Part shown: positions 39,191-46,423 of the stretch, one piece after another
Layout of the letters: each line of letters opens with the position of its first letter
Numbering within the stretch: position 1 is the stretch's first letter
DNA from: Bacteroidales bacterium
GTDB lineage: Bacteria > Bacteroidota > Bacteroidia > Bacteroidales > UBA3663
Assembly (NCBI GenBank): GCA_045639585.1
Contig: JAZUDJ010000140.1
Location: 10,522-74,521, forward strand
Length of the DNA: 64,000 bases
Direction: 5' to 3'
Translations under genes and position numbers: made by a program
Notes under the pieces: model-generated
The model's database searches: none
The model's input: the letters and a program-made list of their open reading frames with translations, nothing else
What the model was told of the DNA's origin: nothing

Positions 39191-39430
39191 GTCATATCCT
39201 GGGACGCGAATAGTACAAAATGGTTTCCGGATGTACTATCTAGGGTCGCGAATAGTACAAAACGATCTCCGGATGTACTATCTAGGGTCGCGGATAGTAC
39301 AAAACAATCTCCGGATGTACTATCTAGGGTCGCGAATAGTACAAAACAATCTCCGGATGTACTATTTAGGGTCGCGGATAGTACAAAACAATCTCCGGAT
39401 GTACTATCCAGGGTCGCGGATAGTACAAAC
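39191..39430. repeat. 42-bp tandem repeat array (~5.7 copies) with internal palindrome
   Basis: Unit gtactatctagggtcgcg(a/g)atagtacaaaacaatctccggat starting at 39191 (degenerate), 39233, 39275, 39317, 39359, 39401 (partial). Confidence 0.95.
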
Positions 39431-39499: not shown

Positions 39500-39991
39500 A
39501 TGAACATGCCTTTTCAGATCAAAACCTACACATTTGAGGATACTTATCTCCCTATCCGAGCATTCTTGAACATCGAAGAAGGAAACAACACCTTGTCAAG
39601 AAAGCCAGAAGACGAGATCGCCTACCCTGCCACCGACGGCAACATCCTCGATGCCGTGATCCGCATCCTTTTGACTCATCACAAGGCCAAAACCCCACTC
39701 GCAGTGGCCCACGCTCTCAACGTCGATCGTCGAGACCTCAGCGGCGCCATCCGTCTTCTCACTGGCATGAGTCACGAGGACTTCCTCCACCAGTATCGCC
39801 TCCGCGCCATGGTCGAGCTCCTCACCTCCACCAAGCTCACCACCACCTTCATCGCCAAATTCTTCGGCTACGCTAACCTCCGATCCCTGAATCAGTTCCT
39901 GGTTGACCAGACAGGCCTCACGGCCAATGAGATCCGCGCCGGCGTGGATGCTTCAGCGAAGGTCAAGAGGCTGGCGTGGTGGGAAAGATAA
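39500..39991 (+). CDS. Small AraC-type HTH protein
   Basis: VAHALNV..LSGAIRLLTGMS..YRL..LL..IAKFFGY..TGLTANEIR double-HTH pattern. Confidence 0.75.
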   Translation: MNMPFQIKTYTFEDTYLPIRAFLNIEEGNNTLSRKPEDEIAYPATDGNILDAVIRILLTHHKAKTPLAVAHALNVDRRDLSGAIRLLTGMSHEDFLHQYRLRAMVELLTSTKLTTTFIAKFFGYANLRSLNQFLVDQTGLTANEIRAGVDASAKVKRLAWWER

Positions 39992-40015: not shown

Positions 40016-40043
40016 AGGGCGATTCTCAAATGAGAATCGCCCT
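40016..40043. terminator. Hairpin terminator between convergent genes
   Basis: agggcgattctca-aa-tgagaatcgccct, perfect 13-bp stem. Confidence 0.8.
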
Positions 40044-40053
40044 AATTTTTTAT

Positions 40054-40170
40054 TTAGTCTCCATATATTCCATCATGAGGATCTGGATCGATTGGGACAC
40101 TTGTGGCAATGATATCGGCCGTATCAACGATGATTATTTCGGCAACCGGTTTAGCATATTTCTTTTTCAT
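40054..40170 (-). CDS. Small peptide (38 aa) MKKKYAKPVAEIIIVDTADIIATSVPIDPDPHDGIYGD, YxKP family
   Basis: Translated by hand. ATG 5 nt after the upstream stop, stop 10 nt before the terminator; paralog at 44991-45137. Confidence 0.75.
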   Translation of the reverse strand: MKKKYAKPVAEIIIVDTADIIATSVPIDPDPHDGIYGD

Positions 40171-40175
40171 ACTCA

Positions 40176-41633
40176 TCATTGATTAATCACCTTATTGCCG
40201 TTAATAATCATGATACCCTTGGTTGTGCGTGGAATACGCATGCCAGCAGGAGTAAAGATCTGAGCCTCATCCTCTGAGGATTCAATCAGATTGATTCCTG
40301 TAGTGCCATTGTAGATTGTAATACTACGTGTCAAAGGAGAAGGACTACTTCCATAAGTAGGGACCTCATCCATATCCACATAAGCACGATTAGCATTGAT
40401 CTTACAACCTGTACCACATTTCACCAATTTGTTATCGTACAGCAAGTACTTTCCCTCAGGCACATCTTTCTCTGATGTGAAATTACCGATCAAGCCATTC
40501 TCTGATAAAGCTTCTGTACTTATATCAAGGCCTGAGTATGTCACAGTCAGATTCTCACTTTCCGCACAGAAAACATATGGCTTACCAGGCTCAAGCGTAG
40601 TCACTTCTTCGAGCACGAGTGAGATCGGATTACTTGTTATTATGTCGACACGTTTACCTGCTATAGAATAAATTGTTGCTCCAGAGGCTGTGCCACCCTT
40701 CGGCAAACAGAGAGTGCCATAATTACCTTCTGTGAGGCCAGAACGAGTATAAGTAATGAGTTCGTGGCACACATCACATGCGCCATCTGCGTCAGCATCG
40801 ACATGATCGTCATCAGAGCAGATGATTGTAAAGTTCGCATCCTTCACCTCTGCGCTGAGGACGTTGCCCTTGGCATCTGCAAGCATGGCATGGAGCGTAT
40901 GAGGACCATTGGTAAGGCCTTCCACACTGATCTCCGTTCCATCAATAGCCATCAGGTTGCGAGTCGTTTCGTCGTCAAACCAATAATAGAGCTGATGTGC
41001 TGCGAAATCAAGATTTACAAAGAACTGCGTCTTTACAGGACAAGGCAATCCGTTGTCATCAACAAGCTGGAAATGTACGGCATGGATTCCGTTAGACAAT
41101 GCCGAGCAATCAATGCTTCCACTTGTGTAAGCCGTCTTCACGGTTTGCTGGTCAAACCAGTAGTTGATGGCCGAATAGCTTGAAGAAGGCGTCAGATTCT
41201 CGTTCAACACCAAGAATGCCTGCGACCTTACGGGGCTCAGCAATCCGTCTGTTCCTTCTATCTGGAAGTGGGCGAAGTGCATGCCGGTAGGCAGGGCAGA
41301 GCAGTCGATCTCAGAACTACCTCTATTGAGTTCTTGCTTAGTAGCCTGCTGATCGAACCAATAGCTCATCTTTCTATAGTCCGAGACTTGCTGCACCTCC
41401 TCGTTCATCACTAGAAATGCCTTTGAGCGCACAGGCGAAAGATTCCCGTCCACTCCCGATATCTGGAAGTGAGCGAAATGCACACCTGTTGACAGGGCAG
41501 AGCAGTCAATCTCTGATCCCGAGAGCATCTGCTTCTCCAGTTGCTGATCGAACCAGTATCTTACAGAATTCTGCCCCCACGCCAGAGACGTAGTGATGAA
41601 AAGGGTTAGTAATAAAGAATAAGCTCTATGCAT
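40176..41633 (-). CDS. Secreted protein with four YWFD repeats and a T9SS-like C-terminal sorting domain
   Basis: Repeats YWFDQQ..IDCSALxxGxHxxHFQ; C-terminus TTGINLI..TPAGMRI..KGIMIINGNKVI. Confidence 0.8.
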   Translation of the reverse strand: MHRAYSLLLTLFITTSLAWGQNSVRYWFDQQLEKQMLSGSEIDCSALSTGVHFAHFQISGVDGNLSPVRSKAFLVMNEEVQQVSDYRKMSYWFDQQATKQELNRGSSEIDCSALPTGMHFAHFQIEGTDGLLSPVRSQAFLVLNENLTPSSSYSAINYWFDQQTVKTAYTSGSIDCSALSNGIHAVHFQLVDDNGLPCPVKTQFFVNLDFAAHQLYYWFDDETTRNLMAIDGTEISVEGLTNGPHTLHAMLADAKGNVLSAEVKDANFTIICSDDDHVDADADGACDVCHELITYTRSGLTEGNYGTLCLPKGGTASGATIYSIAGKRVDIITSNPISLVLEEVTTLEPGKPYVFCAESENLTVTYSGLDISTEALSENGLIGNFTSEKDVPEGKYLLYDNKLVKCGTGCKINANRAYVDMDEVPTYGSSPSPLTRSITIYNGTTGINLIESSEDEAQIFTPAGMRIPRTTKGIMIINGNKVINQ

Positions 41634-41644
41634 AATTGGTGCAA

Positions 41645-42733
41645 TTATTCAGTTGTGCTAACAGAAACAGACAATTTGCCATCTACAGCCTTCTCTCCTA
41701 CGGTGAAAGTGGTAAAGCGAGGATAAGTTACAACTGCAGAATATGGTGCTGCTCCACCGTATATACCCAATTGAGTGTTGTCGGTACCCAAAATGCTTTG
41801 TACCCCTGTAGTCAGAGCGTAATCGTTGTCCATCTCAATCGCAGTATAGCTTGTGGCAGACTCGAAAACTTCAGACATAGGCTTGTATTGACAATTTGTT
41901 ACATATTGAGGAGCAGTAAGATTTGCCATATCAGCCTCAACATCATTAAAACGTCCAGTGAAAATGCAGTTATCCATTGATGATGTTGTTGGGAACAAAT
42001 AGTAGTGTCCATATCTATCAGATGGTGTTGGTGCATTAAAAACGAAAATGGAATTATGTCCCGACATATATGTCAAAGCTCTAGGGGCGTTGTTCGTAAT
42101 TAAAACAGAATTTAGAGAATTGCCTTTTGCATTTGTTCCACGATAATCATTATCTACTCTATATCCAAATACTACAGAATTAATAAAAGAAACCTCAGAT
42201 TCATTCATAACTGAAAAAGACTCTTTTACTCGGCAATTAATCAATCTGCAATTCCTTAATGTCGCATAATAGTATCCGTTATCATAGCGATCCCTAAAAC
42301 CAACATTCTTGATTATACATCTTTTAAACTGCAAATCCTTGATCTCATAAAGATCCGTTTTGTTCAATGGTCTCTCCAATGAAATCTGACAATCGAAATT
42401 AATACCTTCAAAATTCAACCAGTGATTTGATTCATCAGGATCAGAAGATTTGCCAATTACTACTTCTGTATTGATACTTGTAGCCTGCTCAGCAGGTGTA
42501 GTACCAGCGCCCCTGATGTTGAGACTTTTATTGATACTAGCGCCATTGAAAACACCAGTAGAAAGTGTAATCAGGTCACCGTCTGCCGATGCTGCAACGG
42601 CATTGGCAAAAGCTGTAATACCATAATACTCAGTTGTGGTACCCTCATGTGTCAGTGTTGCCACCAAAGACGACTGTGCCATCACACTCAGCGAAGCGAG
42701 GCACATGGCTACGATTGAAAGAAATTTTTTCAT
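41645..42733 (-). CDS. Secreted beta-helix-like protein
   Basis: Signal peptide; AVAASADGDLITLSTGVF..INKSLNIRGAG; C-terminal GTDNTQLGIYGG..P. Confidence 0.7.
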   Translation of the reverse strand: MKKFLSIVAMCLASLSVMAQSSLVATLTHEGTTTEYYGITAFANAVAASADGDLITLSTGVFNGASINKSLNIRGAGTTPAEQATSINTEVVIGKSSDPDESNHWLNFEGINFDCQISLERPLNKTDLYEIKDLQFKRCIIKNVGFRDRYDNGYYYATLRNCRLINCRVKESFSVMNESEVSFINSVVFGYRVDNDYRGTNAKGNSLNSVLITNNAPRALTYMSGHNSIFVFNAPTPSDRYGHYYLFPTTSSMDNCIFTGRFNDVEADMANLTAPQYVTNCQYKPMSEVFESATSYTAIEMDNDYALTTGVQSILGTDNTQLGIYGGAAPYSAVVTYPRFTTFTVGEKAVDGKLSVSVSTTE

Positions 42734-42776
42734 GATTGTTATTTTATTTATTGTTAATATCTTGTCAAACTCTTCG

Positions 42777-42784
42777 CAAATATA
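42777..42784 (-). promoter_or_regulatory. -7 promoter element for the 362aa-485aa-peptide unit
   Basis: TATATTTG on the - strand, 44 nt upstream of the ATG. Confidence 0.55.
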
Positions 42785-42827
42785 ATAAGAAATCGCGAGA
42801 TATAAATATGAGAATAGGTGAGCCGAC

Positions 42828-44945
42828 TTATTCGCCTATGAACACAGCACGGACGGAACAGCCATGAGGACTATCATGTCTATCAAAACTTTGAGATGTC
42901 GTACTCAAGTAAATACGATTGCTGCCATCAATTGCCCAATACCATCCGCCATTTCCTGGTCTTTGTCCATTATTATAATAATAAGGTGTACCATTACCTT
43001 GATTCTGATCACTTACACCAGCAAGCGGCATAAAGATTGAGTTACCTGCATAATCTCCTCTACCTGTAACCTTCCAGCCATTGAGCGTACACCCCGTTTC
43101 ATATTGAATTGAACTACCATCACAATATACAAAATCACAATTATTCAACAACGCCTGCTCTTCTGCAGAAGTTGGCGTGCGCCAATTAGCTCCCCAAAGG
43201 TCCTTGGCTGTATCTCCAGAGGAAGCGCCATTAACATCGGCATAAAGATTGCGTTTGCCGCAGAAAGAGTAATAACCTCCAGTATTAGCAAATGAATATT
43301 CTGTCATACCTTCATAAGTATTTGCACTTGCTCCTACATTGAATGTTGCCCACTTAGGACCACCAGCCCAAAGCTGCACCCAATCGCATGAAGTACGAGC
43401 ATTGGCATTGGTTAGATCTGAAATCGAAACAGTTGCAGAACCTGCGATAGGTCCACTGAACCTCATCTTTGTATCGTTCCAGTCGGTATCATCCTTCAGT
43501 TTTGCCTTTACAGCGTCATCAGTCACGCCATATATGGTGAGACCATTTGCAGTATCTTTGCTTGCGTTATAAAACATCCCCCTCATCTGTTGTATGTTAT
43601 CAAGCGTAAAGTTTTCTCCGAGCTTAAGTGTAGATAGTTTATAGCAATTCATGTACATATCTGTCATAGTTGTCAGATTACTTGTGTTCCATCCAGAGAG
43701 GTCAAGGGTTTCAAGCCTTTGGCAATCGCGGAACATCGCATTCAGACGTTGAACATTTGAAACATCCCAATTAGTTATACCAGACACATCAGTGAGCCAT
43801 TTACAGCCATAAAACATATCATACATTGACACGACATTACGTGTATCAAGTTTATCAAGGCCAGTGATAGTGGTGACATACTCATAGTTACGGAAGAAAT
43901 CGCCACTGCTTGAAGGCATGAGGATAGAAGAGGCCTTAGTACGGATATACAATGTATTTGAATTTCGATCATATACTTCCCAGATAGTGTTGCAACCAAT
44001 ACCACCGACAATTCGGCACACATCACTGACCTCTGCTGTAGGAAGATCCCCTGCATATTCACATTCTATATGGATCTCTTTAGCATAAGAATATTTTCCG
44101 AAAGATGGTTTCTTTAAAATGCGGGCTTGTGTCGATATAGAGTAGTTAGTATCGTCAATCTCTCCGAAGTCATAGATATGGCCTGCCACAGCAGTAAGAG
44201 GATTGACAGCAGTGCGCTCATACACAGCTGTGGCTGTCGTATACGAAACCGTTAACTTGCCCAGATTTTGAGGAGGTACGCAAATGTAATATGTGCTACC
44301 TGCAACAAAAGGTCCGTTCAGTGCAATCTGATATTCCGTATCACTAATATAATCAATTGCACCACTATTTGTGATGATGTACAATCTACCGGCAAGCGGC
44401 TCCACACCATTTAGATATATACCCTGCACACCGTCAAGGGTTTCGGCTATCTTTATCTTAATCAACGCACATGCCTGATGAAGCGTAATCTGATCGGTAT
44501 TCGAACCTTCACCGATGCAAATCATGGCATTAGGGTCATAACTACCTGGCACGGCTTGTTGTATACCTGGCAGATCGGCATAGACTTTTCCCATATCCCC
44601 ATTAGCAGTAGATTGATAAGGACTCAAGAAATAGTATTGATCAGCAGCATCAGCAGTACCCGTGAATGTAGCTACTGAGCCTCCCTCAGCAGTAGTAAAC
44701 TTGAATTGAGTATCGTAATTAATAAACACATTGATGGCATCTTCGGCATTAAATACCACCGATTTCCCATTCTCATCGAGCTGGCTACGTGTATCTCCAA
44801 CATTGGGAGCATTCACAGTAAATGTCATCATCTGCTGCTTACCCTGCTGGGATTCTGCGGTCTCTGACACCATATTCTCATCGCCACAAGAGGCAAAACC
44901 GGCCAGAGCCAGCGCTGCACTCAGAATATATCTTACATTTTTCAT
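42828..44945 (-). CDS. Fimbrillin/type-V-pilin-like lipoprotein with BspA/DUF285 repeats and C-terminal DUF1566/CLec-like domain
   Basis: Lipobox FASC; DTRS..VF..EDAINVF pilin-like N-terminus; LDTRNVVSMYDMFYGC and WDVSNV repeats; WVQLWAGGPKWATFNVGA...GCSVRAV. Confidence 0.8.
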   Translation of the reverse strand: MKNVRYILSAALALAGFASCGDENMVSETAESQQGKQQMMTFTVNAPNVGDTRSQLDENGKSVVFNAEDAINVFINYDTQFKFTTAEGGSVATFTGTADAADQYYFLSPYQSTANGDMGKVYADLPGIQQAVPGSYDPNAMICIGEGSNTDQITLHQACALIKIKIAETLDGVQGIYLNGVEPLAGRLYIITNSGAIDYISDTEYQIALNGPFVAGSTYYICVPPQNLGKLTVSYTTATAVYERTAVNPLTAVAGHIYDFGEIDDTNYSISTQARILKKPSFGKYSYAKEIHIECEYAGDLPTAEVSDVCRIVGGIGCNTIWEVYDRNSNTLYIRTKASSILMPSSSGDFFRNYEYVTTITGLDKLDTRNVVSMYDMFYGCKWLTDVSGITNWDVSNVQRLNAMFRDCQRLETLDLSGWNTSNLTTMTDMYMNCYKLSTLKLGENFTLDNIQQMRGMFYNASKDTANGLTIYGVTDDAVKAKLKDDTDWNDTKMRFSGPIAGSATVSISDLTNANARTSCDWVQLWAGGPKWATFNVGASANTYEGMTEYSFANTGGYYSFCGKRNLYADVNGASSGDTAKDLWGANWRTPTSAEEQALLNNCDFVYCDGSSIQYETGCTLNGWKVTGRGDYAGNSIFMPLAGVSDQNQGNGTPYYYNNGQRPGNGGWYWAIDGSNRIYLSTTSQSFDRHDSPHGCSVRAVFIGE

Positions 44946-44990
44946 ACACTTTGATTGATTTTGTTTTTTACAATTCCATTGATTCACATA

Positions 44991-45137
44991 TTATCCCCAT
45001 GGATTGTACGGATCGTCTTCAAACGCAGGAACCGTACTAGTACAGATTATATCTGCTTCTCTAATCTCTACCACACTGATCTGTGGCTTTGCATACGGCT
45101 TTTTGCCGTCAGTTGCCTGAATGTATTGTTGTTTCAT
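44991..45137 (-). CDS. Small peptide (48 aa) MKQQYIQATDGKKPYAKPQISVVEIREADIICTSTVPAFEDDPYNPWG, YxKP family
   Basis: Translated by hand. ATG ~25 nt downstream of TATATTTG (45162-45169); paralog at 40054-40170. Confidence 0.75.
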   Translation of the reverse strand: MKQQYIQATDGKKPYAKPQISVVEIREADIICTSTVPAFEDDPYNPWG

Positions 45138-45161: not shown

Positions 45162-45329
45162 CAAATATAGTAAAATAATCACATTCTATATATTATATAG
45201 GGCAATGAATGACTCTTATAAAATACAAAATTTCTCTCATATCATACAAGACACTGAAAAATAATGAGATATGAATAAGTAAAAAACAAAAGAAAAATGA
45301 AGAGGGAATAGAAATTATTAGTATCTTTG
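45162..45329. promoter_or_regulatory. Divergent promoter region between the peptide/adhesin unit and AraC
   Basis: TATATTTG on - (45162-45169), TATCTTTG on + (45322-45329), AT-rich spacer. Confidence 0.65.
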
Positions 45330-45352: not shown

Positions 45353-46423
45353 ATGGATAGCCAACTATTACTTCGTGCATTCTTCAGTTTCCTACCCTTC
45401 TTCACCTGCCTATTCTGGCTGATCATCTTTGTGGTGCAATATCGCAGATTAGATGCTGCTAAGCAGATGCTGACGGTATATATCGGCACTTGCGTGGTGC
45501 TGTATTTCTGCCATGCATTGTATTTCACGGTCGGAATACCCTACAAAATAGAGTGTATATGGACGTTTTGTTCTCTATCTGTCTATCCACTATTCTTTGG
45601 ATATCTTTGTCGATTAACATCGAGCGGATTAACCTTCCGACAGGTGTTGCCGTGGCTTTGTCCGGGAGTCGCAGTGGCTTTAGCGAAGTATTTATTCCCA
45701 GATGCAGAAATTGACACACTGCGACTATTGCTCTTTGCCACTCAAATTATCTGCGTATGTTATTTCGGTCTTCGCAGGCTTAAAGCGTTTGACCATCGGC
45801 TTCAGTCATTTTATGCAGATATGGAAGGACGAGACACCACGGCGGTCCATCATCTGCTCATAGCCATCATCTGCGTCAGTGTCCTGTCTGGCATAGCTAA
45901 TACTTTAGGACGCAAGTTCTTTGGAGAGAGTTTGTATCTGCTTGGACTTATCTCGTTGGCGTTCTCGGCAATGCTATTTACGTTGAACTATATCTGTTTC
46001 AACCGTAATTTTACCATCGAAGAATTTGAAGAGGAAAGCGTAGAGAGCGATGCCGGCTCTGATACAGACACTGCAGAAGACAGTGAGGTCATTGGCAAAA
46101 AGCTTGAAGCTCTGATGAGAAACAAGCAGGTCTATCTGATAAAGAATCTGAAGATCAATGACGTGGTTAAGGAAATAGGTTCGAACCGCACTTACGTATC
46201 AAACTACATCAATTCGGTTTATCATTGCTCTTTTTCTGACTATATCAATCAGTTGCGCATCGAGCATGCCAAGGAGTTACTTCTATCATTGGACACAGAC
46301 ACAAAACTATCTACAATAGCCGATGCGTCTGGTTATTCAAGCGAGTCCTCGTTCTATAGGAACTTCCAGAAGATCGCAGGCATGACACCGAATGAATTCA
46401 GGAATAAGAAGGAAGAAAGATAA
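45353..46423 (+). CDS. Membrane-anchored AraC-family transcriptional regulator
   Basis: About 7 TM segments, then NLKINDV..IGSNRTYVS..FSDYINQLRI..SGYSSESSFYRNF..GMTP. Confidence 0.9.
   Translation: MDSQLLLRAFFSFLPFFTCLFWLIIFVVQYRRLDAAKQMLTVYIGTCVVLYFCHALYFTVGIPYKIECIWTFCSLSVYPLFFGYLCRLTSSGLTFRQVLPWLCPGVAVALAKYLFPDAEIDTLRLLLFATQIICVCYFGLRRLKAFDHRLQSFYADMEGRDTTAVHHLLIAIICVSVLSGIANTLGRKFFGESLYLLGLISLAFSAMLFTLNYICFNRNFTIEEFEEESVESDAGSDTDTAEDSEVIGKKLEALMRNKQVYLIKNLKINDVVKEIGSNRTYVSNYINSVYHCSFSDYINQLRIEHAKELLLSLDTDTKLSTIADASGYSSESSFYRNFQKIAGMTPNEFRNKKEER

Follow-up and report, generated by a model that had tools for sequence, protein, structure and literature searches.

The leaders of lasso peptides are defined by a YxxP motif. 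In the paeninodin and pseudomycoidin lasso clusters of Firmicutes (A, K, C, B1, B2, N, D), enzymes of the kinase and nucleotidyltransferase types phosphorylate and then glycosylate the C-terminal Ser, according to the excerpted text of PMC8498205, from which the roles of K and N are taken here; the second-to-last Thr of lasso leaders likewise has a role (PMC10368454, in extract). Bacteroidales are also described as carrying scattered peptides of the GG type, with double-glycine leaders and peptidase-containing ATP-binding cassette (ABC) transporters (PMC10352776, in extract). Here we describe a peptide family that resembles both systems in part. It came to light in a stretch of 64,000 nucleotides from a Bacteroidales bacterium (UBA3663; GenBank assembly GCA_045639585.1, contig JAZUDJ010000140.1, positions 10,522 to 74,521 of the forward strand), called the window below, in which two small open reading frames (ORFs), peptide 1 and peptide 2, lie at the two ends of a cassette of surface-protein genes. 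The family is very large, with many copies per genome, and has neither a name nor a Pfam or NCBIfam model. From the evidence, all of it computational, we think it probable, if by no means sure, that its members are precursors of peptides synthesised on ribosomes and modified after translation (RiPPs), each made up of a leader and a core, which would be processed in trans by a cyclase-less, lasso-related module.

Both ORFs had been reported in a preliminary description of this DNA, on the minus strand at 44991-45137 and 40054-40170, and direct reading of the sequence finds them there. They align without a gap, as had been claimed, over KK-x-YAKP, nine residues and ADII-x-TS, each with a 14-residue tail behind it. 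Peptide 1 has an 11-residue N-terminal extension in front of its leader (KKxYxxP-x10-DIICTS, residues 12-34), and its tail is acidic and aromatic; the leader of peptide 2 is KKKYAKP-x10-DIIATS. This likeness goes far beyond chance. A profile made from four copies was searched against the 2.83-Mb assembly of the same organism (144 contigs, 87% complete) and found 12 copies with E values from 2.5e-25 to 3.7e-6, the next match standing at E = 7.2. Within the genus, 20 of 24 other genomes had matches at E<=0.01, the largest number in one genome being 19; at E<=1e-4 matches were present in 24 of 38 others, and the largest number was 16. Five of the 301 genomes in a sample of the order matched at E<=1e-5, and these come from three genera.

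Neither peptide was matched by any Pfam or NCBIfam model even at E<=1, the GG-type models of NCBIfam included. An index of 5.8 billion proteins gave 158 candidates, of which 107 were unnamed clusters, and a protein atlas likewise returned only unnamed "hypothetical protein" clusters (scores 0.89-0.90). When 1.84 billion representatives of clusters at 50% identity were scanned with HMMER, 3189 were found at E<=1e-3 and 18 at E<=1e-10. Among the best 150 of these 3189 representatives nearly all are 31-87 aa long, the exceptions being a 924-aa protein matched in nine short stretches and a 128-aa protein matched only at its N-terminus; the 137 of these 150 that were inspected have a common front half and unrelated tails. 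One protein of 87 aa, P0205, is predicted to consist of two leader-tail units in tandem.

It could be argued that such ORFs are not genes, and that what has been found is a repeated DNA element, for example a recombination site or a promoter cassette, which travels with paralogous lipoprotein genes. The copies do accompany such genes, and many of them are found near genes of mobile elements (PIN, HU-HIG, Toprim/DnaB, integrase). However, over 43 copies and the 23 ungapped codons of the conserved part, mean codon entropy is 1.02, 0.74 and 1.53 at positions 1, 2 and 3, so that the third position is twice as variable as the second. The invariant Pro is encoded by all four of its codons (CCA, CCT, CCG, CCC), and the invariant Ser by five (AGT, AGC, TCT, TCA, TCC); the switch between AGY and TCN at this Ser means that selection acts on the residue. 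Moreover, all 43 frames are open, and gene callers applied to other assemblies predicted thousands of such peptides. The small ORFs are conserved at the level of the protein and not of the DNA, and neutral evolution, which the preliminary description had named as a finding that would count against the peptides, is not what the codons of these 43 copies show. On the strength of the codon entropy and the variety of Pro and Ser codons the idea of a repeated DNA element is rejected, with hardly any probability left to it.

The anatomy of the family was derived from 241 distinct members, with the tail counted after the invariant Ser. The general pattern is KKxYxxP-x10-DII[A/C]TS; the tail behind it, about 20 residues long, is acidic, with an aromatic residue close to the end. 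The spacing of the YxxP motif is fixed; its Pro is present in 241/241 members and its Tyr in 236. Behind it comes a stretch of alternating hydrophobic residues, h-x-h-h-x-h, of a beta-strand-like kind, and the D, I and I that follow are found in 210, 221 and 237 of the 241. Position -3 is occupied by Cys (122) or Ala (112), position -2 by Thr (220) and position -1 by Ser (239), while position +1 is most often Gly (72), Thr (55), Asn (34) or Pro (17). The tails, with a median length of 20 aa, are net negative in 98.8% of members and have an aromatic residue within their last 8 residues in 94%; Trp is the final residue in 80/241. No hydrophobic signal sequence could be read in the peptides. A lipobox reading of the DII-C motif was ruled out, because half of the members have Ala in place of the Cys. 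What had been proposed from the two peptides of the window, namely a leader that is conserved, a tail that varies and a YxxP of the kind bound by the RiPP recognition element (RRE) of lasso systems, holds for the family at large.

The window contains no maturase, as had been stated for it. Elsewhere in the genome there is a single PqqD gene, located on contig C109 (G000:C109:116403-116663; PF05402, 56 bits, cut-off 23.4), and the solved structures nearest to the PqqD profile are lasso B1 proteins, namely TfuB1 (6jx3, E 3.1e-8), 9x90 and TbiB1 (5v1u). The products of this operon are two secreted paralogs, a protein of 151 aa, the PqqD itself (87 aa) and a P-loop protein of 279 aa; the last three, which make up the module, are encoded at G000:C109:115940-117502. 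In the 151-aa protein and four homologs the boxes GxSMxP, YxxHR and GD are invariant, and we take these to be the boxes known from S26 signal peptidases: the Ser box, the general-base box (here with His for Lys) and the GD box. The best matches of this protein among solved structures are SEC11A/C, at E 0.014-0.022, and TIGR02228 is matched weakly; its structural model, from a 5-row alignment, has a predicted local distance difference test (pLDDT) value of 51, which is too poor to use, and gives a C-terminal helix only, with no N-terminal membrane anchor. The protein may be an S26-type Ser/His peptidase, which is a weak assignment. For the 279-aa protein there were weak matches to HprK-related NCBIfam models, and a sequence search against solved structures found nothing below E 0.69. 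A fold search with its model (pLDDT 86) returned phosphoenolpyruvate carboxykinase (E 5.6e-8) and the L. casei HprK/P (E 1.5e-5, TMt 0.59), so the predicted HPr-kinase-like character of this protein is placed by fold search alone among solved structures. Directly upstream of the PqqD operon, on the same contig, a repeat-like stretch was noticed from ORF translations only (L030:7405-7578).

Across the order the module recurs with two genes added, encoding an NTP_transf_5 protein and an ABC transporter, and in several genomes it is found together with the peptides. For example, locus L053, from another family of the order, has on one strand a peptide, a lipoprotein, a second peptide, a second lipoprotein, and then the HprK-like, S26-like, PqqD, NTP_transf_5 and ABC genes; the leaders of its peptides end in A-G-S. 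In the complete genome of L056 the order is PqqD, a 72-aa family-like peptide, the HprK-like and S26-like genes, about 0.6 kb without a called gene, and the ABC transporter. In L043 a peptide-lipoprotein pair converges on an ABC-PqqD-S24-HprK module, and a homolog of the AraC-family regulator of the window, 69% identical to it, is divergent from that pair. In L015 the distance between the module and a peptide is 2.9 kb, and in L045 it is 4.3 kb. The arrangement at L044:7465-10285 is different. The tail of the family peptide there contains three Cys, and its operon, embedded among four Mfa-like fimbrillin genes, also encodes a lipoprotein of 333 aa, a radical SAM enzyme of 450 aa and a second PqqD, of 101 aa. 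Two side observations concern these module loci. The last module gene of L043 (L043:12021-13298) adjoins the HPr-kinase-like gene, and its product is secreted and belongs to the histidine phosphatase family (branch 2). At L049:645-6698, two near-identical pairs of a distant peptide and a lipoprotein gene stand inverted beside a gene of the phage-integrase family and a PqqD, ABC, HprK and S24 module, which looks like an invertible or duplicated cassette.

Among 37 PqqD-like places in the genus, four lie within 5 kb of a peptide found by the family profile, where, as we calculate, chance alone would give about 0.6. Of the module loci fetched by a match to the kinase alone, 2/14 have a family-like peptide nearby. 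In the sample of 301 genomes from the order, an HprK-like gene is present in all five peptide-bearing genomes and in 26/296 of the others; as the five belong to three genera, the raw count overstates how much of this support is independent. Processing in trans was one of three options left by the preliminary description, and the PqqD operon of the genome, together with the modules beside peptides in other genomes, supports it on computational grounds. A conserved leader, a hypervariable core and a genetically linked cognate RRE protein, which are among the general marks of a RiPP precursor, are present.

Co-folding lends weak support to recognition of the leader. PqqD with peptide 1 scored 0.49, the best of 3 controls scored 0.01, and the runs agreed in at least 92% of contacts, with a partner pLDDT of at least 53. 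The mark had been calibrated on 157 solved complexes, 116 of which reached it, and on 215 mismatched pairs, of which 2 did; scores of 0.60 or less, such as this one, were given by only 18 of the 157 solved complexes and by both of the passing mismatches. Because structures of lasso B1-leader complexes are solved, the pass may also reflect memory or likeness rather than binding.

If the peptides are indeed precursors processed in trans, a pathway can be outlined. The leader, with its KKxYxxP motif and the h-x-h-h-x-h stretch, would be bound by the single PqqD-family protein of the genome, encoded outside the window. The candidate S26-type Ser/His peptidase would cut the leader after the near-invariant [A/C]-T-S, and a cut after this Ser would leave small residues at -3 and -1 and a Thr second-to-last, as in lasso leaders. 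The HPr-kinase-like enzyme would modify the tail, as might the NTP_transf_5 protein where it is present, and in genomes having one the ABC transporter of the module would export the product, namely the tail, acidic and with an aromatic residue towards its end. With the precursors scattered at the start or the end of operons for surface lipoproteins and adhesins, the peptide and the surface protein would be made together. A bolder version, to which we give some credence but which we would not expect to hold, is that the system is a new RiPP class descended from a lasso pathway that has no cyclase. In this version PqqD, an S26 peptidase of the endoplasmic reticulum (ER) type, which is not among the leader proteases listed for RiPPs, and an HPr-kinase-like enzyme, joined in fuller forms by the nucleotidyltransferase and the ABC exporter, would mature and export up to about a dozen or more different anionic peptides in each genome. 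Every peptide would have a variable fimbrillin or leucine-rich repeat (LRR) lipoprotein as its genetic partner and would act jointly with it at the surface, for example as a cognate ligand, a cap or a strain-recognition code.

The resemblance to the paeninodin and pseudomycoidin clusters comprises the YxxP leader; the penultimate Thr, provided that cleavage follows the invariant Ser (Thr precedes that Ser in 220/241 members); a stand-alone B1-like protein of the PqqD family, which is encoded in trans in this genome and in cis at L053, L056 and L043; an HPr-kinase-like enzyme; and, in the modules of other genomes, an NTP_transf_5 nucleotidyltransferase and an ABC exporter. In contrast to lasso clusters, no Asn-synthase-like cyclase (C) and no transglutaminase-like B2 protease turned up in or beside the modules examined, whose peptidase is instead the putative Ser/His enzyme of the S26 type. 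For B2 (PF13471), the own genome gave one match of 21 bits, below cut-off and inside a 988-aa frame, and 5 other carrier genomes gave no match near a module. For the cyclase (PF00733), there was one partial match of 22 bits on another contig of the own genome, and all matches in G067, G147, G177, G050 and G004 were far from the module or on other contigs. The core rule of lasso peptides (G/A/S/C at position 1 and D/E at positions 7-9) is satisfied by 49/241 tails, and D/E occurs at 7-9 in 133/241, which is about the chance level for tails of this composition. It can therefore be deduced from the cyclase, B2 and core-rule tests that this is not a lasso system. A further difference lies in the precursors, of which a genome may have up to about a dozen or more, at scattered sites and in pairs with genes for surface lipoproteins.

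Like the GG-leader peptides of Bacteroidales, the family is made up of numerous small precursors that join a conserved leader to variable cores, and some of these lie far from processing and export genes; we propose a similar removal of the leader at a short conserved motif and export by an ABC transporter. The motif, however, is [A/C]-T-S and not GG, the putative protease is a separate S26-like protein and not a C39 domain, and PqqD and a kinase belong to the module. The 151-aa protein shares with signal peptidases of the ER and archaeal type (S26B; SEC11, SipW) the GxSMxP Ser box, a His in place of the bacterial Lys and the GD box, and the small residues at -3 and -1 of the peptide motif are like those of S26B substrates; it differs from these enzymes in that the matches are weak (E about 0.01), the proposed substrates have no hydrophobic signal and the low-confidence model has no N-terminal anchor. 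In the main texts of the literature searched (supplements and subscription journals lying outside its scope) we found neither the family nor a module of PqqD, S26 and HprK described, and four six-letter motif strings of the family appear in no relevant paper. In the extract of a paper on RiPP mining in Bacteroidales, PqqD appears only in the reference list and HPr kinase nowhere (PMC10352776), and the words signal peptidase, S26 and S24 do not occur in a 2023 review of RiPP leader proteases (PMC10885120).

Several observations weigh against maturation by the module. In the 87% complete assembly of the own genome, the module has no close homolog of the ABC exporter or of NTP_transf_5. Most genomes, this one included, have no peptide near the module. 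Within the genus, where almost all genomes have the module, PqqD is found in 22/24 genomes with peptides and in 10/14 without, and does not discriminate between them. The peptide of L056, which lies inside the module, has a KK-x-Y-x-K-P leader in a shifted register and is without [A/C]-T-S. Only 8/241 tails end in Ser or Thr, so the target of the paeninodin kinase is mostly missing, and 17/241 members have Pro at +1, while signal peptidases of the classical type I are not known to cleave ahead of this residue. The case for an S26 enzyme is itself weak (matches to solved structures at E about 0.01, model pLDDT 51), and maturation, cleavage and modification alike are read from sequence alone. 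Finally, a plain RiPP model does not explain why the peptides are so tightly paired with lipoprotein genes.

This pairing was evident when the neighbours of 43 peptide ORFs, from the window and 29 other loci, were tabulated; 20 of these loci are foreign ones, chosen from the best-scoring matches and from contigs with multiple matches. Twenty-two of the 43 peptides sit 5-48 nt 5' of a lipobox-bearing gene, one more does so at a contig edge and two are fused to such a gene, which makes 25/43. Eight others, among them peptide 2, lie no more than 17 nt 3' of a gene for a large secreted protein. Domains found in the neighbours are Mfa_like_1, DUF285, LRR_5, Lcl_C or Fib_succ_major, Laminin_G_3, Flg_new and CotH. 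In the preliminary description the bracketing of the adhesin cassette by two peptides was taken as a trait of that cassette, and this is not borne out. L012 has the order peptide-gene-peptide, and in L021 three peptides alternate with two genes; with peptides interspersed through surface-protein operons in this way, the bracket is the ordinary pattern. One of the fusions is found in the own genome (L009:8001-9422, contig C5), where a lipoprotein-like ORF, about 470 aa long, has a family peptide joined in frame to its signal peptide; this ORF lies within a type VI secretion locus, flanked by a gp25/TssE-like gene and by the following gene of that locus. A second species has kept the fusion (L010:5980-7374). 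At L026:3338-3633 and L027:2858-3184, two family peptides stand back to back with their frames touching or 10 nt apart.

Other than as substrates of the module, the peptides could serve the neighbouring surface protein directly, for example as an upstream ORF that couples or tunes its translation or as a partner in the cytoplasm by which the pre-lipoprotein is kept in an export-competent state, with no relation to PqqD. The spacing of the 25/43 and 8/43 copies just described would fit such a role, as would the in-frame fusion to a lipoprotein signal peptide in two species, and the failure of PqqD to separate peptide-bearing from peptide-less genomes within the genus would be no surprise. However, it is the N-terminal part of the peptides that is conserved and the C-terminal part that is hypervariable, whereas known arrest peptides have their conservation arranged the other way round. 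Some copies close an operon and have no following gene (peptide 2 of the window and L028), the peptide of L056 is located inside an enzyme module with no lipoprotein nearby, and the link of the module to peptides in cis and its co-occurrence with them across the order would remain without explanation. We regard direct service to the surface protein as unlikely, without dismissing it.

Two further roles, which take up options of the preliminary description, are considered here for an exported peptide. In one, the matured peptide would bind the adjoining fimbrillin-like or LRR lipoprotein, as a donor strand, cap or cognate ligand of a type V pilin-like protein. The pairing with lipoprotein genes (25/43) is consistent with this, and some of the lipoproteins score high enough on a fimbrillin-type model. 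For example, the neighbour in L024 scores 66 bits against Mfa_like_1 (PF13149) and several in L044 are over the cut-off, with L053 close to it (26.9 bits, cut-off 27) and its two peptide-lipoprotein pairs forming one apparent operon with the module. The lipoprotein of the window, on the other hand, reaches only 27 bits against Mfa1 (NF038041, cut-off 130) and has no match to PF13149, and close paralogous lipoproteins, such as those of L001 and L005, are paired with unrelated tails. Moreover, peptides without a signal peptide would need the ABC exporter for this role, and that exporter is missing from the module of the own genome; a ligand of the lipoprotein seems improbable to us. In the other role, the peptide would be a signal sensed by the membrane-anchored AraC protein, which would control the adhesin genes in a loop like that of quorum sensing. 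This concerns what the product does, and so does not compete with maturation by the module. Its support is adjacency only: the divergent AraC gene, whose product has a hydrophobic N-terminal half, adjoins peptide 1, the homolog in L043 has the same place, a 38% homolog in L016 is about 1.9 kb from an orthologous peptide, and other AraC or DUF6377 regulators adjoin peptides in L022, L029 and L003. Against this, L043 and L016 are the only two of 35 other loci searched that have a homolog of the window AraC beside a peptide (the match in L022 covers the DNA-binding, helix-turn-helix (HTH) end only and is about 10 kb from its peptides), and genomes with up to 16-19 different peptides have far fewer such regulators. 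A signalling role of this kind is, in our estimation, doubtful.

Should maturation by the module be correct, a large unnamed family of ribosomal peptides, with 3189 clusters at 50% identity and many copies per genome, would exist in a gut-associated lineage, and its maturation would reuse parts of the lasso machinery without making a lasso. A signal-peptidase-like leader protease would be added to RiPP biology. Small exported peptides would be tied to a variable repertoire of adhesins and lipoproteins, which could bear on colonisation, strain recognition or the control of surface proteins. Genome-mining tools that require a precursor beside its enzymes would miss a family of peptides scattered in this manner.

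The features of the cassette in the window are collected in the table below.

Features of the peptide cassette and its flanks; positions are those of the window
Feature	Position	Strand	Basis
TATATTTG, putative promoter element of the TAnnTTTG type	45162..45169	-	direct reading; 24 nt 5' of the peptide 1 ATG
Peptide 1, 48 aa	44991..45137	-	ORF, alignment, profile match, codon pattern
Lipoprotein, 705 aa from ATG 44945	42828..44945	-	lipobox, DUF285, weak Mfa1-like N-terminal match
362-aa protein with signal-peptide-like N-terminus	41645..42733	-	DUF4957 weak, 22 bits, below cut-off 30.8
485-aa protein with signal-peptide-like N-terminus and four YWFDQQ-containing repeats	40176..41633	-	translation
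Peptide 2, 38 aa (ATG 40170) or 41 aa (ATG 40179)	40054..40179	-	ORF, alignment, profile, codons
G+C-rich hairpin followed by TTGTTGT / T-rich stretch, terminator-like, 3' of peptide 2	40017..40042	-	direct reading
AraC-family regulator, divergent, 356 aa, hydrophobic N-terminal half, C-terminal HTH_18	45353..46423	+	HTH_18, 74 bits
Convergent ORF, 163 aa, AraC-type HTH_18 domain only	39500..39991	+	HTH_18, 43 bits

Read along the minus strand, the operon runs from TATATTTG through peptide 1, the lipoprotein, the 362-aa protein, the 485-aa protein and peptide 2 to the hairpin, so the gene order given in the preliminary description, from a promoter-like element to peptide 1 and from peptide 2 to a terminator, agrees with direct reading. 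The TAnnTTTG motif is presumably the -7 element of Bacteroidota. The lipoprotein has the lipobox LAGFASC, and its ATG is 45 nt after the stop of peptide 1; the open frame extends to a GTG at 44987, and it was this 719-aa reading that was scanned. In it, residues 365-478 are leucine-rich repeats of the DUF285/PARCEL type (DUF285 77 bits, TIGR02167 44.6 bits). The protein with YWFDQQ repeats has no Pfam family above cut-off; its last approximately 40 residues resemble what we take to be a type IX secretion sorting domain, where no family was matched. The ATG at 40179, the earlier of the two possible starts of peptide 2, overlaps the TGA stop of this upstream gene.

No sequencing run contained as much as half of the stretch's words. 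In two RNA libraries, which come from separate studies, there are contigs of relatives, 90-99% alike, that cover positions 43440-45101, from the interior of the lipoprotein through most of peptide 1; this is a weak hint that the two genes share a transcript, as RNA libraries can contain DNA. Elsewhere in the own genome, within a run of lipoprotein genes (L002:8185-9933 and upstream), a gene for a peptidase of the clostripain family (C11) lies 41 nt 5' of a family peptide. In the window, a tandem array with a 42-bp period (5.5 copies, 94% matches) is found at 39201-39429, between a phosphoglucomutase-like gene and the ORF with only the AraC-type HTH domain.

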